From the IMG/VR virus record IMGVR_UViG_2671180568_000004: a stretch of 54,958 bases of DNA, one strand, 5' to 3'. Position 1 is the first letter of the stretch. Every line of letters starts with the position of its first letter. Made by a program: the position numbers and the translations under genes. The notes under the pieces are model-generated. The model worked only from the letters and a program-made list of their open reading frames with translations. It had not been told where the DNA came from and made no database searches. Shown in pieces: positions 33,877 through 51,065 of this stretch. This stretch comes from a virus. Its lineage: Duplodnaviria; Heunggongvirae; Uroviricota; Caudoviricetes.

Positions 33877-33883
33877 TATGTGA

Positions 33884-35194: not shown

Positions 35195-35222
35195 AAATAA
35201 AAAAGCCTTCACTGCGGAAGGC
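35195..35222 (-). terminator. rho-independent terminator
   Basis: hairpin GCCTTC-CGCAGT-GAAGGC followed by TTTTTTATTT on the minus strand. Confidence 0.6.
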
Positions 35223-35406: not shown

Positions 35407-35525
35407 GTCTTTTCCTTTTCCGGTTAACGTGACACACCAATAACTCTTGTCGAAAAAGCCAGCAAGCTGAAAGACAGGTATTCACCGCCACCAGCGCGTT
35501 TACTGTACTGACGCGATTTCAGTCA

Positions 35526-35625
35526 TAAAAAACCCGCCAGGCGGCGGGGTGTAAAAAATCTTCTAACGTCAGGCATAAAACGCCCATCGTTAGAGCAAAT
35601 TTACCACAGATTCGGGAAAAATCAA
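35526..35625 (-). promoter_or_regulatory. late promoter pR'-like element and tR' terminator downstream of Q
   Basis: -35 TTGATT, 16-nt spacer, -10 TAAATT just after the Q stop; then hairpin CCCCGCCGCCTGGCGGG plus T6. Confidence 0.6.
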
Positions 35626-35630
35626 CAACA

Positions 35631-36452
35631 CTATCGCGTTACCCTCTTTAACTGCCGCTCCGCCCATGCCTCTTCAATGTCAAACCGAACCACCAACGTA
35701 TCGTAAAAGCGTTTCACTGATTTTTTCCACGTATCAAGCGTGATAGCACTCGTCACTTTGCGTATGGCATTAAATGCCTCCGTTGATGGTAGTCTTTCAC
35801 AGCCACGACCACCACAACGCTGGCAGTCTCTGATAACAGGCATACCACGTTTTACCGACTCTTCACGATGAATGGCGACACCACGCCCACGGCAATCCTT
35901 ACAGGCGGTGGAAACCTCACCCTTTCCGCCACACTCCGGACAGGCAACTTTTACCACCTCCCTGACTTTTTTCCATTCTTCCCAGTAAGACGGATACACA
36001 CCTTTCGTACACTTTGCCCATACCGGCGGCTTACCATCCGGATACTGGACCTTGTTTGTAAAAACCTCGCTTTCAATAAATTTTTTTCCGTGACAGCAGG
36101 AGCACTGTTTTTTGCTCGCCGCGCTACGGGCATAATCTTCAAACGCATACGAAGCCATAATACGCATCACTGCCGGTTTTATTTCTGCCGGGAGTTTTCT
36201 TAACGCCGCCACGCGATCACACCGACTGAGTGCATATTCTGTCAGCAATTCTGTTGCCCGCTCTCTGTCATTCATACTAATGCCCATTTTCCCAAGGAAC
36301 GCAGAAAACCCCATCTCAGCCCGATTCTGTGTCATGCCCTGCGCGGCCATCACATCAGTGATACTCAGCGCATCTTTCGACGTTGAGGCCGATGCATCAG
36401 TCAGGCCGGGGGATTTTGGGGAGTAGTATTTCGGTAAATCTTCCAGTTTCAT
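35631..36452 (-). CDS. Q: late antiterminator Q (Cys-rich, zinc-binding type)
   Basis: 273 aa; multiple CxxC pairs; sits between rusA and the pR'/tR' element. Confidence 0.75.
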   Translation of the reverse strand: MKLEDLPKYYSPKSPGLTDASASTSKDALSITDVMAAQGMTQNRAEMGFSAFLGKMGISMNDRERATELLTEYALSRCDRVAALRKLPAEIKPAVMRIMASYAFEDYARSAASKKQCSCCHGKKFIESEVFTNKVQYPDGKPPVWAKCTKGVYPSYWEEWKKVREVVKVACPECGGKGEVSTACKDCRGRGVAIHREESVKRGMPVIRDCQRCGGRGCERLPSTEAFNAIRKVTSAITLDTWKKSVKRFYDTLVVRFDIEEAWAERQLKRVTR

Positions 36453-36829
36453 TTTTTGACCTGCTCTTCATGCATTATGGGGTAAATCTTCACCCCCATA
36501 CGTCCACCAGATACTGGCTGACCACGAACGATATTGATTTCATCAAACTGCTCATCGTCCATTAACACTCCCGCATGCGTCAGCGCATCCAGCGGTGCTT
36601 TCAGGATATTGTCCAGGTCGCGACGACGCTTATCCGGTGGCTCTGCAATCACCTTTATCGCCAGCCTTCCGGACAGGCTTAATTTCAGCCGCTGCTGGCG
36701 AACAATAAGCGCCACAGCCCGGCGATAACGCTTTCCCTCCTCCGAGATAAAATATGTGCTGCCACGGCGTCGCCAGTAAGTGTTCACCGTTGGCGGGTAA
36801 GGCAAAACAAATTCTATGCGTTCAGTCAT
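36449..36829 (-). CDS. rusA: Holliday junction resolvase RusA
   Basis: 126 aa; MTERIEFVLPYPPTVNTYWRRRG...DLDNILKAPLDALTHAGVLMDDEQ. Confidence 0.9.
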   Translation of the reverse strand: MTERIEFVLPYPPTVNTYWRRRGSTYFISEEGKRYRRAVALIVRQQRLKLSLSGRLAIKVIAEPPDKRRRDLDNILKAPLDALTHAGVLMDDEQFDEINIVRGQPVSGGRMGVKIYPIMHEEQVKK

Positions 36830-37885
36830 TTATGCTTTCCACTTCAGAACACCCGAATTTCTCGCGTGCATTAAAAAACGAATCAGCAACAACAGCTGGC
36901 TGCCGTGTTTTTCTTCAAAATCTTTTACCCCGGCGTGTAGTTCGCTATGGCATTTACGGCACAGCGGAATAACAAACAAATCATCAGCCTTTGTTCCCAT
37001 CCCTCCCAGTCCATGACCAATGATGTGATGCGGATCATCTGCCTGATTGCCACACGTCATGCATTTCTGCGTTTTTACCCAACGCGTGTATACAGGCATC
37101 TCTTCCCGTTGTGATTTCTGGCGCTGGAGATACTGAGCCGGTGACTCCGGATCAACGGCAATGCTGACCACCGTCTTTTCCTGTGGCGGGTTTTGCTGGT
37201 GAGCGTGAGGCAGCGGCGCAAGATTTTTTGTGCGCTGCTTCAGTATGCTGGTGGCGGTCTGCTCTCCCGGTACGATGTCGCTTTCACGGTACATTGAGCG
37301 GATTTTTTCCGCACGCAACCCCAGCGAACGACGTAATACCGCTTCCGGTAGCGCGTCCGCCACCTGATTGCGGACCGCCCACCAGGATAATTCAGCCAGC
37401 GATAATTCCCGTTCCTGCGAGCCATTCATTGCATGGCGTATGACGTCAATCATCCATGCAGACAGGTTTTGGTGAGCAAGTTGCCCGAGTGATTCGGAGG
37501 TCTGGTCGCGCAGTTGGTTGTCGCAGTGCCAGCACAACACCATTGCGCCGGTACCATAACGGTGAATGACGGTTTCACTGTGGTGATAATCGCCGTGTGG
37601 CCACTGGCAGGATTTAACATGGCGCAGTAACCAGTCAGACAATGCGCCAGCGCCACCAGCAGCACGAATCACTCGTTCGTCGCTGAAAAATGGCAGTAAT
37701 GATTTATCCTCCGCCAGCGGCTGGCGAACGGCAGGAACGACCCCGGACGGCAGATTACGCATGCTTTTCGGTTCCGGCTCCACCAGTACCCGGGTATTGT
37801 GGAATACCGGCATGGATTCACGGCCCGGCTTAACGATCACCAGCCCGAGTTCCGGTACCAGAACAGGTCGAAGTAATACCCGCAC
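36830..37885 (-). CDS. DUF968-like nin-region protein with C-terminal HNH-like Cys/His motif
   Basis: 351 aa; GTG start with GGAGGT RBS; CMTCGNQADDPHHI...CRKCHSELH. Confidence 0.65.
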   Translation of the reverse strand: MRVLLRPVLVPELGLVIVKPGRESMPVFHNTRVLVEPEPKSMRNLPSGVVPAVRQPLAEDKSLLPFFSDERVIRAAGGAGALSDWLLRHVKSCQWPHGDYHHSETVIHRYGTGAMVLCWHCDNQLRDQTSESLGQLAHQNLSAWMIDVIRHAMNGSQERELSLAELSWWAVRNQVADALPEAVLRRSLGLRAEKIRSMYRESDIVPGEQTATSILKQRTKNLAPLPHAHQQNPPQEKTVVSIAVDPESPAQYLQRQKSQREEMPVYTRWVKTQKCMTCGNQADDPHHIIGHGLGGMGTKADDLFVIPLCRKCHSELHAGVKDFEEKHGSQLLLLIRFLMHARNSGVLKWKA

Positions 37886-37886
37886 G

Positions 37887-38159
37887 TTACCTCCAGATGC
37901 GTTGCTGGAATGTGCGGGACGGACGCGGTGGGCGTTCAGAGTAAGGAAGCCTGACGGAGATTATCCAGTGACGATAATCGAGGCTGAGGGCTTTCTTAAT
38001 CTCGTATCCGCGTCTGCGGTAGTTATGAATTAGCCATTCGGCCTGTTCTTCAGTACATGGTGGGTGTTGGTACCAGTCGGTTTTAAATGCGTGTGAACGC
38101 CGCCCATGCCGGATGGCAAGGTCGGTATCAGAATTGTGAAATTTGGTTTTGTGCGCCAT
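37887..38159 (-). CDS. hypothetical nin-region protein (90 aa)
   Basis: ORF track; family uncertain. Confidence 0.45.
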   Translation of the reverse strand: MAHKTKFHNSDTDLAIRHGRRSHAFKTDWYQHPPCTEEQAEWLIHNYRRRGYEIKKALSLDYRHWIISVRLPYSERPPRPSRTFQQRIWR

Positions 38160-38229
38160 CTGTTTTCTCTGCTGGCGCAGCAGGTGTCAGGTGTTCAGGC
38201 TGACGTGCGAATTGTAAACCAGAATGCCA

Positions 38230-38258
38230 GAAAAAAACAAAACCCGCCGAAGCGGGTT
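38230..38258 (-). terminator. rho-independent terminator downstream of hok
   Basis: hairpin AACCCGC-TTCG-GCGGGTT followed by TTTTGTTTTTTT on the minus strand. Confidence 0.6.
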
Positions 38259-38326
38259 AAGTGCGGGTGCGTTGAGGATGCCTGACACATCAGAGGTGGC
38301 GAGGGATTTCTCCCCCGCCCGGTCTC

Positions 38327-38482
38327 TTACTCCTCAGGTTCGTAAGCTGTGAAGACAGCGACCTCCGTCTGGCCGGTTCGGATTCGTACCTCGCAGAGGT
38401 CTTTCCTCGTTACCAGTGCCGTCACTATGACGGTTAAACAGATGACGATCAGGGCGATTAGCATCGCCTTTTGCTGCTTCAT
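38327..38482 (-). CDS. hok: Hok/Gef-family type I toxin (51 aa)
   Basis: MKQQKAMLIALIVICLTVIVTALVTRKDLCEVRIRTGQTEVAVFTAYEPEE; in-frame upstream extension to 38539 may be a mok-like frame. Confidence 0.85.
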   Translation of the reverse strand: MKQQKAMLIALIVICLTVIVTALVTRKDLCEVRIRTGQTEVAVFTAYEPEE

Positions 38483-38773
38483 AGCCTGCTTCTCCTTGCC
38501 TTTCGGCACGTAAGAGGCTAACCTACGTGTGTAGAGCATAGATATGGCCTCAGATTAATGTTAAGCGTCTTGCCGGACGCGTAATGTTAACTGGGGCTTT
38601 TCTCTATCTGCCTTTTGGTGTTCATGCCTGAGACAGATAGCCTCAAGCACCCGCTGCAATTCTACTTAACTCTCCTTTTCCCGCAAACCGTTTTTATCCC
38701 CAGCGGCAAATCGAATACACCACCAGCGCCACCGCCATCGCAATTCCTACCGTTGTTAATGCTTCAGGCCAGC

Positions 38774-39676
38774 TCATTGATTCACCTCCTGCGGCGGTTC
38801 TGGTAGCGGCATCCAGTGTGACGGTTTCCACGACGCACCAGGAATTATCCACCCATCATTAGCGTCAGGATGCCCGGGGATGTAAGTAGCCCATTTCATT
38901 CGCCAGTCACCTTTCCTGTCAAACTCCACGGCAACAAGAACGGCTGTTTTGGTATTCGGCATTCGCTCACTACAGCTTATCCAACCATCCGGAGTTGCCG
39001 GAGAGTTGCCCGATAGTGCATTCTGCTCCAGTGATGCTTTTACAAACCACGCTGCCTGAACTATAACGCCATGAATCCAGCGCAAATCAGCATCGCGATC
39101 TTTCTTTTTCATCTTTTCGCCACTTAAGGCCTTGCTTATGTGGCTGCGTACCAGGTCTTCATGTAATTCCTTCGCCTCCTCAATGGTGAAACCACCAGGC
39201 AGAAGAGCCGGAGTTACCGGAGAGCTGGTTGACGCTTCCGGGATTTCCCGAAAATTATTGGTTGACGAATTCTTGCTTTCCCGAAAGTTTCCGGACTGAA
39301 GCATGGCGGTGCGGCAGGAGTTCCATATTTCGGCAGCAATATCGCGCTCGCTATCGGTTAATTTGTACGTGGAAACATAGCCAGAGAGCATTTCTACGTT
39401 TTCCGGAGTTGCTTCTTCCGGCACTACCGGCGCTGGCGGGGCGATGCGTCCAAGCAACTTATTTACCTCTTTCGCCATCGCGTCATATTTATCTAAATGG
39501 CGATTAGCTTCTAAGCAGACTCGGCGCATCTGATCTGAGTTAACTCGTTTAACTGGATCTGCTTCCAGCGATGCCAGCGCAATCCGTGCCAGTTCCATTT
39601 GTTCACCACGGGTAAGCCCGTTTTCAAGCGGATTTTTAATGAACAATTCAATACGTTCTTTGGTAATAGTGGTCAT
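38774..39676 (-). CDS. DUF551-like domain protein
   Basis: 300 aa; C-terminal WISCSERMPNTKTAVLVAVEF...WKPSHWMPLPEPP. Confidence 0.55.
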   Translation of the reverse strand: MTTITKERIELFIKNPLENGLTRGEQMELARIALASLEADPVKRVNSDQMRRVCLEANRHLDKYDAMAKEVNKLLGRIAPPAPVVPEEATPENVEMLSGYVSTYKLTDSERDIAAEIWNSCRTAMLQSGNFRESKNSSTNNFREIPEASTSSPVTPALLPGGFTIEEAKELHEDLVRSHISKALSGEKMKKKDRDADLRWIHGVIVQAAWFVKASLEQNALSGNSPATPDGWISCSERMPNTKTAVLVAVEFDRKGDWRMKWATYIPGHPDANDGWIIPGASWKPSHWMPLPEPPQEVNQ

Positions 39677-39686
39677 GTGTTACTCC

Positions 39687-39950
39687 TTAACCCGCAGTGC
39701 TTTCAACTGATGAGGGGAACAAAATCTTTTCATCAAACCCTGCATTCATATCATGAACAGCAACACACCAATCCATCGACGAACGATTATCAAGAGCCTC
39801 CATGATTTCATCCATGCGGCGCAGGTCATACAGGTAAATGCTTTTATCGCCAATGGTGTAAAAACCAATTTTTTTCGGTGATGGACAGCGATCAAGAACG
39901 TCCTGTAATTCGCTCAACCATGCTTGTTCTTTTTTTGTCAAAGTTGCCAT
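39687..39950 (-). CDS. hypothetical nin-region protein (87 aa)
   Basis: ATG with AAGGAGAG RBS embedded in a conserved junction sequence. Confidence 0.5.
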   Translation of the reverse strand: MATLTKKEQAWLSELQDVLDRCPSPKKIGFYTIGDKSIYLYDLRRMDEIMEALDNRSSMDWCVAVHDMNAGFDEKILFPSSVESTAG

Positions 39951-39951
39951 A

Positions 39952-40443
39952 TCACTCTCCTTTGATGCGAATGCCAGTGGTACTCATTCTCCTGATTTCC
40001 CAGAGCACACGAGGAACACCACCGTTTCCGACCGGATCGCGTTTACTCCGCAGGGCGACGCTTGATTCCGCCCAGCTTTTTCTTGGAGGAAGCTCTTTCA
40101 CACGAACAAAACCAGCTGCGCGGAGAGATGCTCCTGATTCATCTGCCTGGGTGTACGTAATACAACGTTGATAACCCATAGCCTTTGCTGCCCGCCAGAC
40201 AGCACCATAAAGCGCGCTGTTAGCGTTGCGTTCTCCTGTGGTACATGTGCGATTTACTTCAAGCGTTAATCCATCGTCCAAATGTCGTGCAACAGGTCTA
40301 CCGGCTGTCGCCACACCTATCAATTCTCCGGCATCATTTCTCAGACCAATGCTGAATTTATGCCCCACCGGGGGTTTATTGTGTCGGTGATGTCTGGATA
40401 TAAACGCCTTCGCAACACGAAGAGTAACCGGTGAAATTTGCAT
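39952..40443 (-). CDS. hypothetical protein with GNAT-like sequence pattern (163 aa)
   Basis: ATG (MQISPV) with AAGGAG RBS; ...GVATAGRPVARHLDDGLTLEVNR...YTQADESGASLRAAGF suggests an acetyltransferase-like fold (weak). Confidence 0.45.
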   Translation of the reverse strand: MQISPVTLRVAKAFISRHHRHNKPPVGHKFSIGLRNDAGELIGVATAGRPVARHLDDGLTLEVNRTCTTGERNANSALYGAVWRAAKAMGYQRCITYTQADESGASLRAAGFVRVKELPPRKSWAESSVALRSKRDPVGNGGVPRVLWEIRRMSTTGIRIKGE

Positions 40444-40445
40444 TC

Positions 40446-40805
40446 TCACTCTCCTTTGATGCCAATGTTTACAGACTGGCAAGCCTCTTTGAGCACCCAG
40501 TCAACAGCGTCTTTCCATGCTCCGGTTTCGACTGGCGGATTCTCACGCTTTACCTGTTCATAGAAACGCACTGCTTTAATCAATCCTTCTGGTGTCAGTG
40601 GCACAGGCGGGGCAGTGAATAACACCTGAATTTCATAGTTCGGTCCGTCGTTGCAATCCTCTTTTGTCGGTACATATTTCCAGTCACCAACCCACTGCTT
40701 CCCCTGAAAGTCTGTAACGCCTTTTTTCACGTAGCGATATCGCCATGCCACTGGTTTTGCCTGCCCTGCCTTTTCATGCCCTTCCTGATAATTAATCTCG
40801 CTCAT
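40446..40805 (-). CDS. hypothetical nin-region protein (119 aa)
   Basis: ORF track; ends IGIKGE at the junction sequence. Confidence 0.5.
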   Translation of the reverse strand: MSEINYQEGHEKAGQAKPVAWRYRYVKKGVTDFQGKQWVGDWKYVPTKEDCNDGPNYEIQVLFTAPPVPLTPEGLIKAVRFYEQVKRENPPVETGAWKDAVDWVLKEACQSVNIGIKGE

Positions 40806-40970
40806 TCATCGCCCCACTCATCACAATATGCTTCGACCGGTGTTTTCCCTGCTTCATAATCATCACGCCATGCTTCAGCATCAGCGGCACTTCCACCGCG
40901 TAACTCTGCATAATCCATTAACAGTTCATGCCATTCTTCAAAACTGGCGTTATATTTAGTTGAACCAAAA

Positions 40971-41153
40971 TCAGCCATTTTGTTCTTCCTCTTCGTCTTT
41001 TATTTCGTGGTATGAGTAATTGCAGTAGTTAAAGAAAATATCTTTAGCTTCATCCTGTATTTCATCTGGTGTTGCATCATCATCCACTTCGAATTCATCC
41101 TCGAAATCTCCACCGGCTATTCCCGTTTCAATAATTATTTTGAATTTTCGCAT
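40971..41153 (-). CDS. hypothetical small acidic protein (60 aa)
   Basis: ORF track; a further 57-aa ORF (about 40803..40977, MADFGSTKYNASFEEW...) lies just downstream. Confidence 0.35.
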   Translation of the reverse strand: MRKFKIIIETGIAGGDFEDEFEVDDDATPDEIQDEAKDIFFNYCNYSYHEIKDEEEEQNG

Positions 41154-41281
41154 TTCACTACCGCCCTTTCGGACGGCCTCCTGATGTTCTGAGGGTGCAG
41201 GAATCCCTCCGGTTAAGGATTTAATAAAAATCGTTTCTGATTTAAATCTTCAGTATTTAGTTGTTAGTCGGTTTATAGCCT

Positions 41282-41593
41282 TTATGCTTCGGCCTTATTT
41301 CTCAGCCATACACAAACCGGGCCATCTTCGGTGTCATGTATTGAACCAATAAACCATCCATTGTCCTCTGGTCGTTCCGGTTCCCATGCAGAAATATCAG
41401 CATCACACGCATCAAGGTCAGCACATCCTTCATCTCTGAAGCAGAGGACGTATTGAAGATTATTTTCCTCCATCCAGGCGTTAAACTCTTCCGTTGAAAT
41501 ATATTCCCGACCGTCACAGAATTTTTCATATTCAGGATGCGTCCAGTAGCCATATTCATCACGTACTACTGGTATTTCTTTAATTTCATTCAT
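41282..41593 (-). CDS. hypothetical protein (103 aa)
   Basis: ORF track. Confidence 0.45.
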   Translation of the reverse strand: MNEIKEIPVVRDEYGYWTHPEYEKFCDGREYISTEEFNAWMEENNLQYVLCFRDEGCADLDACDADISAWEPERPEDNGWFIGSIHDTEDGPVCVWLRNKAEA

Positions 41594-41840
41594 TTCTGTT
41601 CTCCCACGTTTTCAGACTTTCACCACAGAACGGACAAAATGAAACCCGAACTGGTAATTTAGAAAATTCACCGGAACGCAACATCACAAAATCAGGACCG
41701 CGAGTTAAACTCTCATTCCAGATTTTGTATATCAGCAGACCTTTTCGCATCGTGTATTCAGCATCACGCTCAAGGGACTTTGCCAGTGCTGCACATGGTT
41801 CTATCTTGTTGCCATTAACCTGGCATTTTGATTCACTCAC
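41586..41840 (-). CDS. hypothetical zinc-ribbon-like protein (84 aa)
   Basis: GTG start with GGAGG RBS; CxxC...FCPFCGE. Confidence 0.45.
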   Translation of the reverse strand: MSESKCQVNGNKIEPCAALAKSLERDAEYTMRKGLLIYKIWNESLTRGPDFVMLRSGEFSKLPVRVSFCPFCGESLKTWENRNE

Positions 41841-42102
41841 CGCACCACCTCCTCAAAATTCCCCTGATAAAACGTAAGCGTACAGCCTGAACCGTCTGGT
41901 CAGAATCTGACGAATTAGACAAAGTGGTGTCCACCAAATAAGTAGTGGGAACCAAAGTGTCAGATATGCAGAAAAATGTGACTCCCGGCAGGCGAAAAGG
42001 CTGCCCTAATTATCCTCCCGAATTTAAACAGCAGCTCGTTGCTGCCTCCTGTGAACCCGGGATATCCATCTCAAAACTTGCTCTTGAAAATGGCATTAAC
42101 GC

Positions 42103-42112
42103 NNNNNNNNNN
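42103..42112. other. N10 scaffold gap; 41874..42102 repeated verbatim at 42113..42341 (restart exactly at the IS end)
   Basis: read directly. Confidence 0.9.
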
Positions 42113-42183
42113 GTAAGCGTACAGCCTGAACCGTCTGGTCAGAATCTGACGAATTAGACAAAGTGGTGTCCACCAAATAAGTA

Positions 42184-42585
42184 GTGGGAACCAAAGTGTC
42201 AGATATGCAGAAAAATGTGACTCCCGGCAGGCGAAAAGGCTGCCCTAATTATCCTCCCGAATTTAAACAGCAGCTCGTTGCTGCCTCCTGTGAACCCGGG
42301 ATATCCATCTCAAAACTTGCTCTTGAAAATGGCATTAACGCCAATCTGTTGTTCAAATGGCGACAACAATGGCGCGAGGGAAAGCTGCTATTACCTTCTT
42401 CAGAGAGCCCCCAGCTACTTCCTGTGACTCTCGATGCAACTGCCGAACAGCCAGAATCGCTCGCAGAGGACCCGGAAACCCTCAGTATCAGCTGTGAGGT
42501 AACGTTCCGGCACGGGACGCTCCGCTTCAATGGCAATGTCAGCGAAAAGCTCCTGACTCTGCTGATACAGGAACTGAAGCGATGA
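42184..42585 (+). CDS. IS66-family accessory protein (first ORF)
   Basis: 133 aa; HTH-like N-terminus; a partial duplicate lies at 41945..42102 before the gap. Confidence 0.8.
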   Translation: MGTKVSDMQKNVTPGRRKGCPNYPPEFKQQLVAASCEPGISISKLALENGINANLLFKWRQQWREGKLLLPSSESPQLLPVTLDATAEQPESLAEDPETLSISCEVTFRHGTLRFNGNVSEKLLTLLIQELKR

Positions 42586-42929
42586 TCCCGTTACCTTCCG
42601 GGACCAAAATTTGGCTGGTTGCCGGTATCACCGATATGAGAAATGGCTTCAACGGCCTGGCTGCGAAAGTACAGACGGCGCTGAAAGACGATCCCATGTC
42701 CGGCCATGTTTTCATTTTCCGGGGCCGCAGCGGCAGTCAGGTTAAACTGCTGTGGTCCACCGGTGACGGGCTGTGCCTCCTGACCAAACGGCTGGAGCGT
42801 GGGCGCTTCGCCTGGCCGTCAGCCCGTGATGGCAAAGTGTTCCTTACGCAGGCGCAGCTGGCGATGCTGCTGGAAGGTATCGACTGGCGACAGCCCAAGC
42901 GGCTGCTGACCTCCCTGACCATGCTGTAA
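42582..42929 (+). CDS. IS66-family TnpB-like protein (second ORF)
   Basis: 115 aa; overlaps the first ORF by 4 nt. Confidence 0.8.
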   Translation: MIPLPSGTKIWLVAGITDMRNGFNGLAAKVQTALKDDPMSGHVFIFRGRSGSQVKLLWSTGDGLCLLTKRLERGRFAWPSARDGKVFLTQAQLAMLLEGIDWRQPKRLLTSLTML

Positions 42930-42978
42930 ATCTCTTTATCCTGGTTGTCACAGAATAAGCCCGGTAAAATACGGGCTT

Positions 42979-43841
42979 ATGAACGACATCTCTTCTGACG
43001 ACATCTTCCTGCTGAAACAGCGCCTGGCCGAACAGGAAGCGCTGATCCACGCCCTGCAGGAAAAGCTGAGCAACCGGGAGCGCGAAATAGACCATCTGCA
43101 GGCGCAGCTGGATAAACTCCGCCGGATGAACTTCGGCAGTCGTTCCGAAAAAGTCTCCCGCCGTATCGCACAAATGGAAGCCGATCTGAACCGGCTTCAG
43201 AAAGAGAGCGATACGCTGACTGGTAGGGTGTATGACCCGGCAGTACAGCGTCCGTTGCGTCAGACCCGCACCCGTAAGCCGTTCCCTGAATCACTACCCC
43301 GTGACGAAAAGCGACTGTTGCCTGCGGCGCCGTGCTGCCCGAACTGCGGCGGTTCACTGAGCTATCTGGGCGAGGATACCGCCGAACAGCTGGAGTTGAT
43401 GCGTAGCGCCTTCCGGGTTATCCGGACGGTACGGGAAAAACATGCCTGTACTCAGTGCGATGCCATCGTGCAGGCACCTGCACCTTCGCGGCCCATCGAG
43501 CGGGGTATCGCCGGACCGGGGCTGCTGGCCCGCGTGCTGACCTCGAAGTATGCAGAGCACACCCCGCTGTATCGCCAGTCAGAAATATACGGCCGGCAAG
43601 GTGTGGAGCTGAGCCGTTCACTGCTGTCGGGCTGGGTGGATGCATGCTGCCGGCTGCTGTCTCCGCTGGAAGAGGCGCTTCATGGCTATGTCATGACTGA
43701 CGGCAAACTCCATGCCGATGATACCCCGGTCCAGGTACTGCTGCCGGGTAATAAGAAGACGAAGACCGGGCGGTTGTGGGCGTATGTTCGTGATGACCGC
43801 AATGCCGGGTCAGCGTTGGCACCTGCAGTGTGGTTCGCTTA
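42979..43841 (+). CDS. IS66-family transposase, 5' part (continues at 45633 in this scaffold)
   Basis: zinc-finger CCPNCGG...CTQCD and coiled-coil N-terminus; sequence 43738..43841 reappears at 45633..45736. Confidence 0.75.
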
Positions 43842-43879
43842 GGGGTCTGACGCTCAGTGGAACGAAAACTCACGTTAAG
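43842..43879. repeat. Tn3-family 38-bp terminal inverted repeat
   Basis: GGGGTCTGACGCTCAGTGGAACGAAAACTCACGTTAAG read directly. Confidence 0.85.
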
Positions 43880-45177
43880 CAACGTTTTCTGCCTCTGACG
43901 CCTCTTTTAATGGTCTCAGATGTCCTTTGGTCACCAGTTCTGCCAGCGTGAAGGAATAATGGCCGAGCATATTGATATGTCCGTGGCAAAGCGGGGAGAG
44001 GCGTGCGATATCTTCATCATTCAGTGTTTCACCCTGCGCCCGGAGATGATCCAGGGCTGCCTGCATATAAATAGTGTTCCATAACACGACGGCGTTAGTG
44101 ACCAGCCCCAGTGTGCCCAGTTGATCTTCCTGACCGTCGGTATATCGTTTTCTTATCTCACCTTTTTGACCGTGACAGATGGCTCTGGCAACGGCATGGC
44201 GACTTTCTCCCCGATTAAGCTGGGTCAGAATGCGCCGGCGGTAATCTTCATCATCAATATAATTAAGCAGATACAGCGTTTTGTTGATGCGCCCCACTTC
44301 AATGATTGCCTGAGTCAGTCCGGAAGGACGTTCACTTTTCAGCAATGAACGGACCAGCACTGAAACCTGTACTTTGCCCAGCTTCAGGGAGCCAGCGGTC
44401 CGGATCATTTCGTCCCACTGAAGGACTATTTTTCGGGGATCTGATTGCCCTCTGGCAATATCATTCAGCACGCCATAGTCGGCATCATGGTCCATTCGCC
44501 AGAAAACCGAAGCACCGGCATCAGCCAGGCGTGGAGAAAACTGGTATCCCAGCAGCCAGAAAAGGCCAAAGACAAGTTCGCTGGCACCTGCTGTATCGGT
44601 CATAATTTCGGTTGGATTCAGCCCGGTCTCCTGTTCCAGAAGACCTTCCAGCACAAAGATAGAGTCCCTCAGCGTCCCCGGTATAACGATGCCATGAAAG
44701 CCGGAATACTGATCGGACACAAAGTTGTACCAGGTGATCCCTCTGTTATTACCAAAGTATTTGCGGTTCGGTCCGGCATTGATTGTTCTGACTGGCGTAA
44801 CAAAGCGCATTCCATCTGCAGATGCCACTTCTCCTCCACCCCATATCTGTGCCAGTGGCAGCGTTGCCTGAAAATCAACCAGTCTGGCATTAGCGCTGGT
44901 GATAGTTTCAGCCCGCAGATAGTTCGCTTTTGTCCAGTTCAGCCGGTGTCGGGTCAGTGCAGGAACATTTGATCTGATCAGTGGTTCCAGACCGATATTG
45001 CAGGCTTCAGCCATCAGCACGGCGCTGATGCTGACGGGCAGATCATCAACTCTGGCACTGGCTTCACTAGCATGGAAAAACTCATCAGCAAATCCGGTAT
45101 GGGCGTTAATTTCGAGCAGCAACTCCGTTAAATCCACCGGAGGGAGTAGATCACTGATCATTTTGCTCAGTCGTTTC
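43875..45177 (-). pseudogene. tnpA: Tn3-family transposase, C-terminal ~435 aa only (5'-truncated by IS26)
   Basis: stop lies within the IR as in Tn3; 5' end abuts the IS26 end. Confidence 0.8.
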
Positions 45178-45622
45178 GGCACTGTTGCAAATAGTCGGTG
45201 GTGATAAACTTATCATCCCCTTTTGCTGATGGAGCTGCACATGAACCCATTCAAAGGCCGGCATTTTCAGCGTGACATCATTCTGTGGGCCGTACGCTGG
45301 TACTGCAAATACGGCATCAGTTACCGTGAGCTGCAGGAGATGCTGGCTGAACGCGGAGTGAATGTCGATCACTCCACGATTTACCGCTGGGTTCAGCGTT
45401 ATGCGCCTGAAATGGAAAAACGGCTGCGCTGGTACTGGCGTAACCCTTCCGATCTTTGCCCGTGGCACATGGATGAAACCTACGTGAAGGTCAATGGCCG
45501 CTGGGCGTATCTGTACCGGGCCGTCGACAGCCGGGGCCGCACTGTCGATTTTTATCTCTCCTCCCGTCGTAACAGCAAAGCTGCATACCGGTTTCTGGGT
45601 AAAATCCTCAACAACGTGAAGA
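45178..45622 (+). mobile_element. IS26 left end and partial transposase (cut off by N10)
   Basis: IR GGCACTGTTGCAAA at 45178; MNPFKGRHFQRDIILWAVRWYCKYGISYRELQEM... matches IS26 transposase. Confidence 0.85.
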
Positions 45623-45632
45623 NNNNNNNNNN
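45623..45632. other. N10 scaffold gap; sequence after the gap restarts at the equivalent of 43738
   Basis: read directly. Confidence 0.9.
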
Positions 45633-46412
45633 CTGCTGCCGGGTAATAAGAAGACGAAGACCGGGCGGTTGTGGGCGTATGTTCGTGATGACCGCAATGC
45701 CGGGTCAGCGTTGGCACCTGCAGTGTGGTTCGCTTACAGCCCGGACAGGAAAGGCATCCATCCGCAGACTCATCTTGCTTGCTTCAGCGGTGTGCTGCAA
45801 GCGGATGCGTACGCCGGGTTCAACGAGCTGTATCGCAATGGTCGGATAACGGAAGCTGCCTGCTGGGCTCATGCCCGCCGAAAGATCCACGATGTGCACG
45901 TCCGCATCCCGTCAGCACTGACGGAAGAAGCCCTGGAGCAGATCGGTCAGTTGTACGCCATAGAGGCGGATATAAGGGGAATGCCGGCAGAGCAGCGGCT
46001 TGCTGAACGTCAGCGAAAAACGAAACCGCTGTTGAAATCCCTGGAAAGCTGGTTGCGTAAAAAGATGAAGACCCTGTCGCGACACTCAGAGTTGGCGAAG
46101 GCGTTCGCGTACGCACTTAACCAGTGGCCGGCACTGACGTACTATGCGAACGATGGCTGGGTGGAAATCGACAACAACATCGCTGAAAATGCCCTGCGAG
46201 CGGTCAGTCTGGGTCGTAAAAACTTCCTGTTCTTCGGCTCTGACCATGGTGGTGAGCGGGGAGCGCTACTGTACAGCCTGATCGGGACGTGCAAACTGAA
46301 TGACGTGGATCCAGAAAGCTACCTTCGCCATGTGCTTGGCGTCATAGCAGACTGGCCGGTCAACCGGGTCAGCGAACTGCTTCCGTGGCGCATAGCACTG
46401 CCAGCTGAATAA
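45633..46412 (+). CDS. IS66-family transposase, 3' part (DDE region)
   Basis: continuation of the 42979 frame once the overlap is collapsed. Confidence 0.75.
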
Positions 46413-46449
46413 CACATCCCCGTCAATACGGCCCTCGCTGTACGCTTAC

Positions 46450-46843
46450 GATAAAACGCCAGTACACGCTGCATAGCTTCACTCTTCCGGCACTCGCGAC
46501 AGATTATGTTTAGGCGCCTGTCGTAGCGACGTATTTCTCCGTCAGGTAATGACCAGATAAGGTCCGGATCAACCGCAGATGGTTTCTTCAGCTTTGCCCT
46601 TGAGAGCTTTTTACGGGCATTTTGCCAGTCCTTACGCGCCTGTTCAGACGGGAATAACCCGTAACCAGAGTTGTATACATCGCCACTGGCAACCAGCTCT
46701 CTGGCCAGAACGCTCATCAGATATCTTGTTGCCCCAGTTTTAGTTTCCAGTTGTCGTAACGTCTCGCGCCCACTCTGGCGTACGAGTTCAACAACCTGCC
46801 CTTTAATTTTTTCCCGCTCTTCTTGTGTAAAAACTTTTGCCAC
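46450..46843 (-). pseudogene. phage gene with its last 9 codons replaced by IS66 insertion (native 131 of ~140 aa retained)
   Basis: frame runs into the IS at 46449; removing IS plus one TSD restores ...VLAFYQGNFEEVVR then stop. Confidence 0.6.
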
Positions 46844-46883
46844 AAGCCCTCCTGAAAATTACCTCATGACCAGAAATTAACAC

Positions 46884-47861
46884 TTACCCCCTGAAGCCCG
46901 GCGGAATTTCAGTGTCCGGTTCAGAAATGTGATTCACGCAACGCTGCGCAGGCGAACGCCCCAGGCGGATAACCAGTTCATCCCATTTTTCCCGGAGTTT
47001 TGCCGGACTCATGATGTTTTTTACCCAGAACGAATCCCGCTGGAGACGCCCAAACATTTCACAAATTTGTCTGTGAGTTCTGCCATCCAGCATCCGCATT
47101 GTGCGAACGTCATTGGCCCATGCTGTCCAGTTGGGTTCTTTCGGTCTAGTGATCTCGCCATCATAGCTGGCCGCCTGCTCGTAAAGACTCACGATTCGTC
47201 CCCAGATCCACTGTGCGCACACCAAATCTTCCTGACTTCCCCACTGGCGTTTTTTCGCACTGAACACAACCGCGTCAGGGTGTCGGGTTAAAAAATCCTG
47301 TTCAGCCGTCTGCGGGTCCGGTTGCGAAGCGTCCGGACAAGAAGATCTTTTATCTGACGGATCAGGTTTTAATACTGACGGATCGGGGTCAATCATCGGC
47401 CCCCTAATCGGCAGTTTTTTATCAACAGTTGATCCATCAAAATTTGACGGGTCAACCGTTGAGGGGTCAATATTTGACGGGTCAACTGTTAACGGGTCAT
47501 TTTTTGCCGGGCTAATTTTTCTTTTCGGTTTATATGACTCACGCGCCGCCGCCGCAGCTGCTTCGAGTTTTTCCACATTAAGCCGATAGATATTGCTTAC
47601 ATTACGCCCACCGACCTTACGCTCTTCCTTCGTCAGCCAGCCCTCTTTCGCCAGTTCTGCAATAGCCGATTTCACTGTGGATTCACTTCTTGCACCGATC
47701 TGACGCCGGATAGTTTCAATGGCAGGCCATGACACGCCCTCGTCATTGCTGTAGTCTGCAAGACGGGCCATAACCGCCACCCTGGATAAGATCATGCCGG
47801 TGAAGGCGCACCCTTCCCAGACAAGACCATGAAGCTTGCTGCTCATAAAACCCCCGAACAC
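46884..47861 (-). CDS. replication initiator (O-like) containing the origin iterons
   Basis: 325 aa; HTH-like N-terminus; internal peptide repeats TVDPSNIDPSTVDPSNFDGSTVD encoded by DNA iterons; track start may be a non-ATG codon. Confidence 0.65.
   Translation of the reverse strand: MFGGFMSSKLHGLVWEGCAFTGMILSRVAVMARLADYSNDEGVSWPAIETIRRQIGARSESTVKSAIAELAKEGWLTKEERKVGGRNVSNIYRLNVEKLEAAAAAARESYKPKRKISPAKNDPLTVDPSNIDPSTVDPSNFDGSTVDKKLPIRGPMIDPDPSVLKPDPSDKRSSCPDASQPDPQTAEQDFLTRHPDAVVFSAKKRQWGSQEDLVCAQWIWGRIVSLYEQAASYDGEITRPKEPNWTAWANDVRTMRMLDGRTHRQICEMFGRLQRDSFWVKNIMSPAKLREKWDELVIRLGRSPAQRCVNHISEPDTEIPPGFRG
47429..47501. promoter_or_regulatory. origin-like iterons (4-5 copies of TTGACGGGTCAAC-like 13-mer at 15-bp spacing)
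   Basis: ttgatccatcaa 47429; ttgacgggtcaac 47444; ttgaggggtcaat 47459; ttgacgggtcaac 47474; ttaacgggtcatt 47489. Confidence 0.65.
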
Positions 47862-47868
47862 CGTGCTT

Positions 47869-48294
47869 TTAGTGCATCACCACAGCATTCCCTGCCGGGC
47901 CGCCGCGATTCATCTGGTCATACAAAACAACCGCTGACGCAACAAAATCATCGACATCCTTCACCAGCCGATCCCGCCGTTCGACGATCTCACGGTAATA
48001 TTCAGAACTGTGGCTGCGCATACGGGCCACCAGCAAAGGCGGCATCGCCTTTTCGATCGCCGGTAACAGAGCCTGCATTTTTTCAACAGCATCAGGGGTG
48101 TCTTTATCCAGCCAACGGAAAATTTTCTGGGTATTACGGGCCAGGGCTTCCGGATGGCTGTCGTCATACAGTTCCGGGAACGTCATTCCCAGCTCGAAAT
48201 ACGCTTTGGTAATTTTCGCAGCCGGCACTTTTTCGCCGTCCGGATGCGCCCAGACATTCATCGCCATGCGGATGTGTTCATGCTTGATTTTCAT
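47869..48294 (-). CDS. YdaT-like early regulator (cII position)
   Basis: 141 aa; follows the Cro-like gene. Confidence 0.55.
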   Translation of the reverse strand: MKIKHEHIRMAMNVWAHPDGEKVPAAKITKAYFELGMTFPELYDDSHPEALARNTQKIFRWLDKDTPDAVEKMQALLPAIEKAMPPLLVARMRSHSSEYYREIVERRDRLVKDVDDFVASAVVLYDQMNRGGPAGNAVVMH

Positions 48295-48559
48295 GAATCA
48301 AGCTCCTAGAAAGTGGTTGTGTTAACGTTTTGGTATCTTCCAGCTCGGGCCAAATATTCATCCAATCAAAAGGCCTTAGTTGCTGACGTGTAACTTCACC
48401 ATTACTGGCTCGCTCAATAAGGACACATAACGATGCCCCTAACACTTGACCTTTACTCAATGCCTTTCTTAGATAACCGATGCTGGTACCACACTCGCAT
48501 GCAAACATACGCTGTTCATCTGACGAAAGAGAATTGAGAAATATTCTTAATTCTTCCAT
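48278..48559 (-). CDS. Cro-like HTH repressor (YdaS-like)
   Basis: 93 aa; ATG with AAGGAG RBS; HTH around QRMFACECGTSIGYLRKALSKGQV; divergent from the CI-like gene. Confidence 0.6.
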   Translation of the reverse strand: MEELRIFLNSLSSDEQRMFACECGTSIGYLRKALSKGQVLGASLCVLIERASNGEVTRQQLRPFDWMNIWPELEDTKTLTQPLSRSLIHENQA

Positions 48560-48586
48560 AGCTACTCCTTAGTAAACACAGCAAAG

Positions 48587-48631
48587 AATACCCACAGGTA
48601 AACAAAAGTCAATACCCACAGGTTGTTTACC
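48587..48631. promoter_or_regulatory. operator region: two 13-bp direct repeats AATACCCACAGGT plus inverted repeat GGTAAACAA/TTGTTTACC
   Basis: repeats at 48587..48599 and 48611..48623 between the divergent repressor genes. Confidence 0.6.
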
Positions 48632-48659
48632 TTGCGGTAATCGCATCTATTATTTACCT

Positions 48660-49079
48660 ATGGACAAATATGAATTTAGACGACAGCAACTCATCAAAAT
48701 TCGTGATGAGAAATGCGATGGTAAAGCGGTTAACGTGGCCAGAAAGATCGGGCGCGAGCCTTCTTATGTATCAAGAATGTTGTACCCAGAGGGGAAAAAG
48801 GGAAAAAAACGGATCGCTGATGATATGGTGGAGATTATCGAAGAGTCCTTTGGGTTACCCCGGGGATGGATGGATGGTATCGTTTCATCATCAACGAACA
48901 CAGCCTCCAGTTATGAAACAAGGGTTCTAACGCCACGACAACGTATTTTTTTAGATCTCTTAGACGAACTGCCAGAAAGTGAAGCGGATAAATTATTAAA
49001 AACTCTTGAAGAGAAAAAACAGTATTACAATATGATCTACGAAGAAATCCGTAAAAAGAAAGCACAAAACGCATCATAG
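48660..49079 (+). CDS. CI-like prophage repressor (HTH only, no LexA-type peptidase domain)
   Basis: 139 aa; HTH around VNVARKIGREPSYVSRML; no Ser/Lys peptidase motifs. Confidence 0.55.
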   Translation: MDKYEFRRQQLIKIRDEKCDGKAVNVARKIGREPSYVSRMLYPEGKKGKKRIADDMVEIIEESFGLPRGWMDGIVSSSTNTASSYETRVLTPRQRIFLDLLDELPESEADKLLKTLEEKKQYYNMIYEEIRKKKAQNAS

Positions 49080-49344
49080 CTCACCAAACAACTAGTCACC
49101 AGTTAAGACACCGCAAAAATTTACCCATGGGTATTTACTTTTTAAATACCTATGGGTATCCTTCTTTTCATACCAACCCACCCCGCCCCACAGAATGCAG
49201 GGCAATACTTCGAGTTACCAGGCAGTGGTCAGGGGTTAAGTAGCCAGCCCGAGGCGTAAGAACATGACGGCAGGGTTCAACTTTAATAACTATGCAGCAG
49301 GTTTTTGTTCCGCTCCCCCGGCGTTAAGGGGAAATGAGGTCAGC

Positions 49345-49497
49345 ATGGATACTATCGATCTTGGCAACAGCGAATCTCTGGTATGTGGTGTGTTCCCAAA
49401 CCAGGACGGTACGTTCACCGCGATGACGTATACCAAAAGCAAAACGTTTAAAACCGCAGCTGGCGCGCGTCGCTGGTTAGCCAGAAACACTGACTGA
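49345..49497 (+). CDS. small left-operon protein (50 aa)
   Basis: ATG MDTIDLG with GAGGT RBS; stop overlaps next start (TGATG). Confidence 0.45.
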   Translation: MDTIDLGNSESLVCGVFPNQDGTFTAMTYTKSKTFKTAAGARRWLARNTD

Positions 49498-49847
49498 TGA
49501 GGTTGACGATGGAATTTAAAGATTTACCTCCTTCAATCCAGGAGATTGCAGCACACACACTTCGTCATCGTCTGAACGAACTTGAATTGGAATCGGTAAC
49601 AAAAAAAGACACTGATAATATGGCTCGTAATGTGCGCGATGCGTTTACTGGGCTGTTTTCAGATACAGCTTTAAATATCCATGGCACAGAGGATACAGCA
49701 AAACAATTTGCAGAAAAAGAAGTGGAAGATCCCAGTTCAAAGAGCCAGAAACAGCCAAACAACCATGAAATTAACGAACTGCTTCTGGCAACAGGCTTCA
49801 TAAATATTAACGAATATGAACGCCGTAAAAAAATGTTATCTGATTAA
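49497..49847 (+). CDS. hypothetical left-operon protein (116 aa)
   Basis: ATG coupled to the upstream stop. Confidence 0.45.
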   Translation: MRLTMEFKDLPPSIQEIAAHTLRHRLNELELESVTKKDTDNMARNVRDAFTGLFSDTALNIHGTEDTAKQFAEKEVEDPSSKSQKQPNNHEINELLLATGFININEYERRKKMLSD

Positions 49848-50030
49848 TCCATCAAGATATCTTTTTAGCATCAGCGTTTCTACGTTATTAAAACCATCAG
49901 ATTTTAACATAGCTTCGATTCGCTGATTTAAATTGCCAACTAACTGTTGATACTGAGTAGATGGAAGCATGTGTACCAGCTCCTTGAGAACACAATAACA
50001 TGCACCAAGTTTTAACTCCTGCTCTGACAT
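49836..50030 (-). CDS. hypothetical small protein (64 aa), convergent with the left operon
   Basis: ATG MSEQELKLG with GGAGGA RBS 5 nt upstream. Confidence 0.5.
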   Translation of the reverse strand: MSEQELKLGACYCVLKELVHMLPSTQYQQLVGNLNQRIEAMLKSDGFNNVETLMLKRYLDGLIR

Positions 50031-50369
50031 TTTATCCTCCATTGAGGTTACTGGTTGAGAATGGAGACCTCTCGTGACAGCGTGTGGTCGTGCGCCGGAC
50101 ACGGATAAGAATCCGGCACTGACAGTTTACTGAAAGGATATTTCCCTGAAAAGTCAGACCATAACGCGAAAGCGCACGGCGAGGTAGCTGGTTCATAGAT
50201 AGCCTGTCGTTAAATTTTCGTCGACCGTGCGCTTCCGGTTGTGGCAATCCGCGAAATGGCGCGGCGGTAAGTATGGCGGGGTTATTCCTTCCCCCGTTGA
50301 GGACACCGGGTTGTCAGGTTGACCATACGCTTAAGTGACAACCCCGCTGCAACGCCCTCTGTTATCAAT

Positions 50370-50427
50370 TTTCTGGTGACGTTTGGCGGTATCAGTTTTA
50401 CTCCGTGACTGCTCTGCCGCCCTTTTT
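50370..50427 (+). ncRNA. dicF: DicF small RNA (ftsZ-targeting), with intrinsic terminator
   Basis: TTTCTGGTGACGTTTGGCGGTATCAGTTTTACTCCGTGACTGCTCUGCCGCCC plus T-run matches E. coli DicF as recalled; about 170 nt upstream of dicB as in Qin. Confidence 0.85.
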
Positions 50428-50596
50428 AAAGTGAATTTTGTGATGTGGTGAATGCGGCTGAGCGCACGCGGAACAGTTAAAACCAAAAACAGTGTTATGG
50501 GTGGATTCTCTGTATCCGGCGTTAATTGTTAACTGGTTAACGTCACCTGGAGGCACCAGGCACCGCATCACAAAATTCATTGTTGAGGACGCGATA

Positions 50597-50785
50597 ATGG
50601 AAACGTTATTACCAAACGTTAATACGTCTGAAGGTTGTTTTGAAATTGGTGTCACTATCAGTAACCCTGTATTTACTGAAGATGCCATTAACAAGAGAAA
50701 ACACGAACGGGAGCTATTAAATAAAATATGCATTCTTTCAATGCTGGCCCGTTTACGTCCGATACAAAAAGGATGCTGGCAATGA
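50597..50785 (+). CDS. dicB: cell division inhibitor DicB
   Basis: METLLPNVNTSEGCFEIGVTISNPVFTEDAINKRKHERELLNKICILSMLARLRPIQKGCWQ; ATG with GAGGA RBS. Confidence 0.85.
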   Translation: METLLPNVNTSEGCFEIGVTISNPVFTEDAINKRKHERELLNKICILSMLARLRPIQKGCWQ

Positions 50786-50973
50786 ATACAGCATTTGCAC
50801 TTGTTCTGACAGTTTTTCTTGTTTCCGGAGAGCCAGTTGATATTGCAGTCAGTGTTCACAGGACAATGCAGGAGTGTGTGACTGCAGCAACCGAACAGAA
50901 AATTCCCGGTAACTGTTACCCGGTCGATAAAGTTATTCACCAGGATAATAACGAAATCCCGGCAGGTCTTTAA
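50782..50973 (+). CDS. ydfD: YdfD-like small lysis-associated protein
   Basis: MNTAFALVLTVFLVSGEPVDIAVSVHRTMQEC...; ATGA overlap with the dicB stop. Confidence 0.75.
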   Translation: MNTAFALVLTVFLVSGEPVDIAVSVHRTMQECVTAATEQKIPGNCYPVDKVIHQDNNEIPAGL

Positions 50974-51065
50974 AACAGTTCCGTAATAAATATCCGGTTT
51001 CATTCTTATATGCCAGCAATGGCAGGGATTTGTTCACCCTTAAATCTGTAATGAGGTAAAACAAA

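Follow-up and report, generated by a model that had tools for sequence, protein, structure and literature searches.

In E. coli, prophages are commonly eroded or silenced by IS insertions. Classical polar IS insertions are known from the early-right operon of lambda, such as IS2 in lambda r32, and classical lambda IS-insertion mutants also show that the processive antitermination of lambdoid phages overrides IS polarity. The terminal repeats of IS66-family elements reportedly start with GTAA. A target duplication of 8 bp has been reported for IS66 (PMC6778807). ISEc8 inactivates nu1 of the Sakai prophage Sp4 (PMC2669165) as well as stx2A of the O157 strain 9000, for which function was restored by precise removal of the element (PMC6776261).

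The window considered here is the whole analysed stretch of 54,958 nucleotides (IMG/VR record IMGVR_UViG_2671180568_000004), which is a draft scaffold of E. coli PCN033. The host element is a lambdoid prophage of the DicF/YdaT-type, integrated beside ompW. A preliminary description of this DNA placed an IS66-family insertion of 4.6 kb at the boundary of the replication and nin regions. Almost certainly, the underlying event is the transposition of a single intact 2442-bp ISEc8 into codon 132 of a DUF977 gene, while the 4.6-kb appearance is an assembly artefact. The family assignment holds, since the element is ISEc8, with its tnpA-tnpB-tnpC ORFs, IS66 domains and 8-bp duplication. The insertion is already known, being annotated in the closed PCN033 genome; it is a recent event, specific to this strain and of a familiar type.

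The interrupted gene (46319..46843, minus strand) matches Pfam DUF977 and phrog_142; the names 'Ren-like' and 'LygF' are no more than labels from annotation. Its native product of 140 aa ends in AFYQGNFEEVVR directly before the stop codon, and the DUF977 domain spans residues 1-135. The window ORF encodes 174 aa, in which 131 native codons, ending in AFY, are followed by 43 codons from the antisense strand of the right end of the IS. Comparison of the translations thus bears out the proposed exchange of the last nine codons (QGNFEEVVR) for 43 IS-encoded ones, and RefSeq already marks the PCN033 gene as a pseudogene. A PDB sequence search with the DUF977 protein gave no match, and the sole paper found to mention DUF977 is unrelated. 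Intact DUF977 genes are present in isolated phages (Rac-SA53, mEp460, PhiR42_1, HannyBb; mosaic relatives at 88-95%), and the search of the phage collection returned mosaic relatives only, with no IS-free phage identical to the module.

The displaced native 3' end of DUF977, encoding QGNFEEVVR followed by TGA, is located at 41837..41865 (minus strand). It runs into the GTG start of the following gene (GTGA), contains the GAGGAGG Shine-Dalgarno sequence of that gene (41848-41854), and corresponds to a 4-nt overlap between the DUF977 stop and the next start in the annotation of an IS-free genome. The insertion precedes the GTG start by 25 nt and the Shine-Dalgarno sequence by 11 nt, which replaces the earlier figure of 26 bp upstream of the ribosome-binding site. 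Its direct consequence is that the DUF977 C-terminus is replaced and the stop/start overlap is broken, so the first gene downstream of the IS (41586..41840, minus strand; 84 aa; phrog_4030, unknown function) is now uncoupled from DUF977 translation. A Pfam search with the 84-aa product gave no match. The downstream products of 84, 103, 60, 58 and 119 aa match only PHROGs of unknown function and give no homology to lambda Nin proteins. The region sits between the replication genes and Q and includes a Holliday-junction resolvase (RusA); the term 'nin' is therefore used as a positional label only.

The order of genes on the minus strand is Cro-like, CII/YdaT-like, O-like and DUF977/Ren-like, with DUF968/HNH, RusA and Q further downstream. 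Matches to phrog_35 (Cro-like), phrog_163 (CII-like), phrog_391 and phrog_127 on this one strand characterize a lambdoid early-right region, from which the repressor gene (phrog_5736) is divergent. Immediately upstream of DUF977 lies the O-like replication initiator (46884..47861, minus strand; phrog_391 'replication initiation O-like', E = 4e-115; Pfam HTH_36), and the Q-like antiterminator, which is annotated as an antitermination protein and matches phrog_127 and phrog_25523, is encoded at 35631..36452 (minus strand). A candidate early-right promoter, TTGACT-16-TATTCT, is located upstream of the Cro-like gene (48585..48612, minus strand) as a consensus match of a type not more numerous than in shuffled sequence. 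The IS is inserted ~5.4 kb upstream of Q with its genes antisense to phage early-right transcription. As proposed earlier, it stands between the replication module and the RusA/Q region: 2.44 kb of antisense IS DNA parts the Cro/CII/O/DUF977 block from ~15 genes further downstream, RusA and Q among them.

Because the IS lies between the early-right promoter and the delayed-early genes, polarity is expected unless antitermination acts. The fusion ORF is predicted to stop 131 nt into the IS, which would leave ~2.3 kb of untranslated RNA exposed to Rho-dependent termination, and Rho typically acts on long antisense RNA that is not translated. Since this RNA would be open to Rho, early-right expression of Q and of the delayed-early genes beyond the IS would probably fall, and lytic development would be impaired. 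A polar effect on Q and a poorly inducible prophage are plausible, and the chances that the IS has a substantial effect on Q/delayed-early expression and lytic development appear evenly balanced. If polarity does occur, the locus would be one further case of IS-mediated prophage domestication. Literature searches, which included the PCN033 genome paper, retrieved neither expression nor induction data on this prophage.

It is also quite possible that the insertion is near-neutral for the phage, with read-through of the IS or other promoters serving Q and the late genes and with the truncated DUF977 being dispensable; in that case the prophage would be inducible, or defective, to the same degree as relatives that lack the IS. 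This agrees with a DUF977 domain that is 131/135 complete, with a next gene that keeps its Shine-Dalgarno sequence and start, and with an antisense strand that has neither an excess of terminators nor a C-rich, G-poor stretch. Terminator-like sites on the antisense strand number 4 compared to 6.0 +/- 3.4 in shuffles (one weak hairpin, none convincing). The antisense IS RNA contains 29.0% C and 27.8% G, and there is no obvious Rho loading site, because no 100-nt window of this RNA has C exceeding G by at least 15. The suppression of IS polarity by processive antitermination in lambdoid phages points in the same direction, and RNA-based or unrecognised antitermination, or independent promoters upstream of Q, may act here. 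However, no N-like antiterminator is found among the early ORFs scanned (a scan that short or RNA-based systems would escape), a consensus scan of the closed-genome locus gave no outward promoter-like site in the IS, and the length of the untranslated antisense RNA itself argues for Rho action. Promoter and terminator scans are uninformative either way, because their counts are not above those of shuffles. A further reading regards ISEc8 as a 'lock' that disconnects early-right transcription from Q and the late genes, by which an otherwise intact ompW-site prophage would be stably retained. This is rather unlikely; if true, the retained prophage would keep DicF/DicB, Hok/Sok and other cargo.

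The interval between the two target octamers in the window is 4576 bp, which is too long for ISEc8, and this misfit arises because the scaffold is chimeric. The notion that the whole 4.6 kb is IS had to be abandoned: the 4592-bp interval contains two 10-N gaps and 1781 bp of Tn3/IS26 DNA on a misplaced plasmid contig, and it repeats 229 bp of an IS end and 103 bp of tnpC, whereas the true element measures 2442 bp. Nearly half of the interval, namely the repeated IS end, the two gaps and the plasmid DNA, is an assembly artefact. The true chromosomal left end, ISEc8 1-229 (41874..42102, plus strand), starts with GTAAGCGTACAGC and forms the end of contig B; it matches the chromosomal ISEc8 without mismatch and differs from the plasmid copy at 1 position. 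Behind a gap of 10 N (42103..42112), the misplaced middle contig (contig C) opens with ISEc8 1-1729 of the plasmid p3PCN033 copy (42113..43841, plus strand), recognizable by its plasmid SNP alleles. Its first 229 bp duplicate 41874-42102, and it carries tnpA (42205-42585; HTH_Tnp_1), tnpB (42582-42929; TnpB_IS66) and the 5' part of tnpC (from 42979). Next is a truncated Tn3-family end (43842..45177, minus strand) that interrupts this second ISEc8 copy at position 1729 and comprises a 38-bp inverted repeat, GGGGTCTGACGCTCAGTGGAACGAAAACTCACGTTAAG, and the 3' part of tnpA, corresponding to a Tn3-like transposase pseudogene in p3PCN033. The middle contig terminates with the left 445 bp of IS26 (45178..45622, plus strand), with the repeat GGCACTGTTGCAAA and the tnp26 start at 45241, annotated as IS26 transposase in p3PCN033. 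These 1781 bp (43842-45622) belong to plasmid p3PCN033, and the Tn3 segment is missing from the closed chromosome locus. After the second gap of 10 N (45623..45632), contig D starts with the true chromosomal right part, ISEc8 1626-2442 (45633..46449, plus strand; 0 mismatches to the chromosomal ISEc8). Within it, 45634-45736 duplicates the 103 bp at 43739-43841, position 1729/1730 of ISEc8 is crossed uninterrupted, tnpC extends to 46412 and the right terminal repeat to 46449.

Against the PCN033 chromosome, contig B shows 99.99% identity and contig D 100% over 9326 bp. The middle contig (42113-45622) is 99.65% identical to the chromosome, and matches NZ_CP006635.1 130742-134251 as a single piece at 99.9% (2 mismatches in 3510 bp), with the plasmid allele at 5/6 discriminating SNPs. 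This segment corresponds to the ISEc8::Tn3-IS26 junction of the ColV-type resistance plasmid p3PCN033, a different locus on a different replicon that entered the window through mis-scaffolding only; the same junction occurs on plasmids of 32 complete genomes. The draft scaffolder placed the p3PCN033 contig (ISEc8 1-1729, Tn3 end with delta-tnpA, IS26) into a repeat gap, so that the IS ends on both sides of the gap became duplicated and 1.8 kb of foreign DNA was brought in. It is very improbable that the scaffold is literally right and that a chromosomal IS66-family element is broken by a Tn3 fragment and IS26 into a 4.6-kb composite. The contig order in the window is all that speaks for it, but contig D runs unbroken over 1729/1730 where contig C turns into the Tn3 repeat, a single locus would require an unexplained 103-bp duplication, contig C has plasmid alleles and an end-to-end match to p3PCN033, and the closed PCN033 chromosome shows a plain 2442-bp ISEc8 here. 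The comparisons of the contigs to the chromosome and to p3PCN033 thus refute the composite, which would have falsely implied a resistance-plasmid fragment (Tn3/IS26) within a chromosomal prophage. The lesson is one of data quality: in this draft scaffold, repeat gaps were filled with whichever repeat contig aligned, so that chromosome and plasmid DNA are mixed in the flagged interval.

The insertion of ISEc8 into DUF977 duplicated the 8-bp target GATAAAAC. This octamer occurs only twice in the whole window, at 41866-41873 and 46450-46457, each copy directly outside an IS66-type terminus. The termini are GTAAGCGTACAGC, which starts at 41874, and the reverse complement of this sequence, which ends at 46449; together they form a perfect inverted repeat of 13 bp with partial matches beyond. 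An uninterrupted site with a single octamer is found in 136 complete E. coli genomes (at least 80% coverage), with 100% coverage and ~99.8-100% identity in the best 25 of these. Alignments of the window with an annotated IS-free relative join exactly on the octamer, with 99.9% identity over flanks of 8.1 kb and 8.5 kb. The proposed target duplication is thereby confirmed. A coincidental octamer repeat, with the IS brought in by recombination or within a mosaic phage module instead of by transposition, is practically excluded: two octamer copies alone are unremarkable, because ~0.8 are expected per strand in 55 kb, but both copies exactly abut the IS termini, other ISEc8 copies have 8-bp duplications of their own, and the one-copy sites and the flanks of more than 8 kb meeting on the octamer refute such an arrival.

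Once the scaffold duplicates and plasmid DNA are removed, ISEc8 measures 2442 bp, within the 2.4-2.7 kb range of the family and equal to its length in the closed PCN033 genome and two other strains. Other copies of this length are flanked by their own 8-bp duplications, ATTGCAGT and GTTTTTTG. The closed PCN033 chromosome carries a plain intact element at this locus in the RefSeq annotation, with tnpA, tnpB and tnpC as three consecutive intact ORFs and an intact transposase of 512 aa. Pfam assigns HTH_Tnp_1 to TnpA, PF05717 (TnpB_IS66; 1e-38) to TnpB, and PF03050 (DDE_Tnp_IS66) together with zf-IS66, LZ_Tnp_IS66 and IS66_C to TnpC (8e-107). The filled site is found in PCN033 only, among 5426 complete genomes (99.8% over 3650 bp, one piece). 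Eight more records cover at least 80% of the filled-site query. All four inspected carry the IS at other positions, namely in a DUF7167 gene, at another point in DUF977 or on its downstream side, and are not the same insertion; the other four are without the left flank of the query. Three independent IS66-family insertions lie inside DUF977 genes and two close by. As a weaker possibility, IS66-family elements might favour the DUF977-to-nin-like segment of lambdoid prophages as a target.

ISEc8 of PCN033 is 99.3% identical (16 mismatches) to an O157:H7 copy that PGAP names ISEc8 and that served as a proxy for the reference. It shares its length, tnpA-tnpB-tnpC organization, GTAAGCG... termini and 8-bp duplication with ISEc8 of E. 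coli O157:H7 and many other E. coli. Its structure is no different from known ISEc8, and the insertion site alone is particular to PCN033 among the 5426 complete genomes. With a single strain concerned, the biological weight of the insertion is small. As in lambda r32-type insertions, the IS separates the early-right promoter from the delayed-early genes that follow it; however, N/nut antitermination largely overcomes IS polarity in lambda, whereas the early ORFs scanned in the PCN033 prophage gave no N-like match. Sp4 nu1 and stx2A of strain 9000 are likewise lambdoid prophage genes that carry ISEc8. In contrast to these, the target in PCN033 is a small accessory gene at the replication/nin-like boundary, and any phenotype would arise mainly from polarity and less from the loss of a known essential function.

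The octamer GATAAAAC is found at 41866-41873 and again at 46450-46457, with no third occurrence in the window. GTAAGCGTACAGC starts at 41874, just inside the left copy, and its reverse complement ends at 46449, just inside the right copy; the terminal inverted repeat of ISEc8 consists of 13 perfectly matching bp followed by partial matches. This octamer pair with IS66-type ends confirms the junctions proposed in the preliminary description, which had also called for a comparison with IS-free relatives. A query made up of a single octamer copy with 1 kb of flank on either side recovered the uninterrupted site from 136 complete E. coli genomes (at least 80% query coverage), the best 25 of which showed full query coverage at about 99.8-100% identity. 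In the IS-free record NZ_CM136175.1, the site falls in the gene for a 140-aa 'DUF977 family protein', whose stop (TGA) and the start (GTG) of the 84-aa gene that follows lie in a four-base overlap. The window aligns with this record at 99.91% over 8130 bp of left flank and 99.99% over 8509 bp of right flank, and the two alignments join on the single octamer copy of the empty site, so that a chance repeat can be dismissed as the origin of the octamer pair. The insertion of ISEc8 at DUF977 is a transposition with an 8-bp target duplication, and a recent one, because the flanks are near-identical to those of IS-free relatives.

The interval 41866-46457 had been taken for a single IS of 4.6 kb, a reading that fails on its N gaps, duplicated ends and internal plasmid-derived contig. 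The window is a draft scaffold, and runs of ten Ns lie at 42103-42112 and 45623-45632. The 229 bases at 41874-42102 recur exactly at 42113-42341, across the first gap, and the 103 bases at 45634-45736, past the second, duplicate 43739-43841. Beyond 43841 the middle contig (42113-45622) exits the IS66-type transposase gene into a Tn3-type 38-bp inverted repeat, followed by an oppositely oriented, truncated Tn3 tnpA and the left 445 bp of IS26; in the contig starting at 45633, the transposase gene runs unbroken across this point of divergence. Compared with the finished E. coli PCN033 chromosome, identity is 100% for 1-29919, 99.99% for 31065-42102, 100% for 45633-54958 and 99.65% for 42113-43841, while 43842-45622 has no match at the ISEc8 locus. 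The entire middle contig instead matches plasmid p3PCN033 in one piece (NZ_CP006635.1 130742-134251; 3001-6510 of the extracted locus L006), differing from it at 42272 and 42439, with the chromosomal allele at one of these. This plasmid stretch is annotated with ISEc8 tnpA and tnpB, a truncated ISEc8 transposase, a truncated Tn3 transposase and IS26, and is flanked by colicin V genes and bleO/oqxA.

Within ISEc8 positions 1-1729, the copies of chromosome and plasmid can be told apart at six sites. The middle contig agrees with the plasmid at five of these, and the flanking contigs show no mismatch to the chromosomal copy. The chromosomal allele at one of the two positions where the middle contig departs from p3PCN033 suggests a consensus of reads collapsed from both copies. 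PCN033 was sequenced with 454 reads that gave 113 large contigs, with gaps later closed by PCR (PMC4578781), a draft history that fits a repeat contig dropped into the IS gap. The real chromosomal element is a plain 2442-bp ISEc8; the two N runs and two duplicated stretches of the interval are artefacts, as is its Tn3/IS26 segment.

The junction ISEc8(1-1729)::Tn3 repeat-delta-tnpA::IS26 of the middle contig is found in 32 complete E. coli genomes (at least 80% coverage). Among the matches listed, 17 are full-length at 99.8-99.9%, all in records of plasmid size (117-162 kb), and the carriers come from chickens, pigs, pets and humans. Resistance plasmids of one ColV-type lineage carry this junction as a conserved scar. 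A second scaffold artefact lies between the ten-N runs at 29920-29929 and 31055-31064: the contig 29930-31054 is fully redundant (29356-29919 equals 29930-30493, and 30510-31054 equals 31065-31609), and in the closed genome the contigs on either side of it share an 18-bp overlap. The duplication swells the DUF6645 gene from 618 aa in the closed genome to a 789-aa ORF with X residues.

Once freed of the duplicates and of Tn3/IS26 DNA, which leaves an IS of 2442 bp, the filled site matches in one piece in only one complete genome, PCN033 itself (99.8%). The insertion is strain-specific, being carried by one of the 137 complete genomes with this segment. At this site the RefSeq annotation has tnpA and tnpB, an 'IS66-like element ISEc8 family transposase' that is intact at 512 aa, and the DUF977 gene as a pseudogene lacking its C-terminus. 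Pfam assigns HTH_Tnp_1 to TnpA, TnpB_IS66 to TnpB, and DDE_Tnp_IS66 together with the IS66 zinc finger, leucine zipper and C-terminal element to TnpC. An 8-bp target duplication is the rule for IS66 elements (PMC6778807), and two further ISEc8 copies inspected, each of 2442 bp, have their own 8-bp duplications, ATTGCAGT and GTTTTTTG. The element shows all testable IS66-family features, and its family was correctly recognized from the start.

The native DUF977 protein ends in ...AFYQGNFEEVVR. As originally described, the C-terminus has been swapped: the fusion ORF (46319-46843) reads ...AFY followed by 43 residues that the IS encodes in antisense. The Pfam DUF977 model covers residues 1-135, of which 131 are kept in the fusion. 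The distance to the 84-aa gene needs correction: the insertion precedes GAGGAGG by 11 nt and the GTG by 25 nt, where 26 bp had been given for the ribosome-binding site. That site is kept and the DUF977 stop/start overlap is lost.

According to PHROG and Pfam matches, the phage genes in this region lie on the minus strand. A repressor-type regulator (48660-49079, plus strand) is followed by a Cro-like gene (48278-48559), a YdaT/CII-like gene (47869-48294) and an O-like replication initiator (46884-47861), all on the minus strand. Next comes the minus-strand DUF977 gene, a 'Ren-like exclusion protein' in PHROG and LygF in phage records, which directly follows the initiator in the replication module (46319-47861, minus strand). 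ISEc8 separates it from about ten small genes without assigned function, beyond which lie hokD/sok, a DUF968/HNH gene, rusA and a Q-like antiterminator (35631-36452, minus strand). The term replication/nin boundary is fair as a position, but the genes just downstream of ISEc8 lack lambda Nin homology in the PHROG comparison. In the stretch from O to the small genes, Pfam and PHROG recognized no helicase loader of the lambda P, DnaC or DnaB type, and a replication role for DUF977 may therefore be conceivable. At the Rfam gathering score, matches were obtained for DicF upstream of dicB (50371-50422, plus strand) and, on the minus strand, for sok beside hokD (38477-38652), two copies of STnc100 downstream of Q (32879-33067 and 33343-33536) and two tRNA genes (33803-33959). 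These RNAs identify a DicF/DicB-carrying lambdoid prophage with Qin-like immunity; it adjoins ompW, and its annotated head, tail and lysis modules are apparently complete.

ISEc8 is oriented antisense to the early-right operon. The fusion ORF stops 131 nt into the IS, leaving about 2.3 kb of untranslated RNA between the replication block and all genes down to Q. Rho-dependent termination typically acts on long untranslated RNA of this kind, and within the IS it would be expected to lower downstream expression from the early-right promoter, barring processive antitermination. None of the early ORFs scanned resembled an N gene. A consensus scan found no outward promoter-like site from the IS and terminator-like sites no commoner than in shuffles, and the antisense IS RNA has no C-over-G bias. 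The PCN033 genome paper gives no induction results for the ompW prophage (PMC4578781). The chances of a substantial polar effect on the downstream genes are about even, the computational checks neither favouring nor opposing it; the lowered Q expression and poor inducibility proposed in the preliminary description are possible effects.

IS66-family elements have also inserted independently into DUF977, or next to it, in other lambdoid prophages. ISEc8 lies within DUF977 in O157:H7 PV15-279 (L009 1501-3942; duplication GTTTTTTG) and in a nearby DUF7167 gene in 14EC047 (L003 4001-6442; duplication ATTGCAGT). An IS66-family element lies near codon 42 of DUF977 in AMSCJX03 (L007 1778-about 4218), and in WS3294A ISEc22 sits downstream of that gene, at a distance of about 240 bp (L008 1501-about 3950), coordinates being counted within each extracted locus. 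Being small in number and ascertained in one orientation only, these cases are mildly suggestive of a regional preference, or reflect chance. Prophage functions can be lost to ISEc8, as precedents illustrate: it knocks out nu1 of the Sakai prophage Sp4 (PMC2669165) and stx2A of strain 9000, where toxin production returned after precise removal by allelic exchange (PMC6776261). The closed PCN033 genome already annotates the present insertion, and the IS, its mode of insertion and the kind of consequence are all familiar; the chromosomal ISEc8 of PCN033 shows 16 differences over 2442 positions from a copy in O157:H7.
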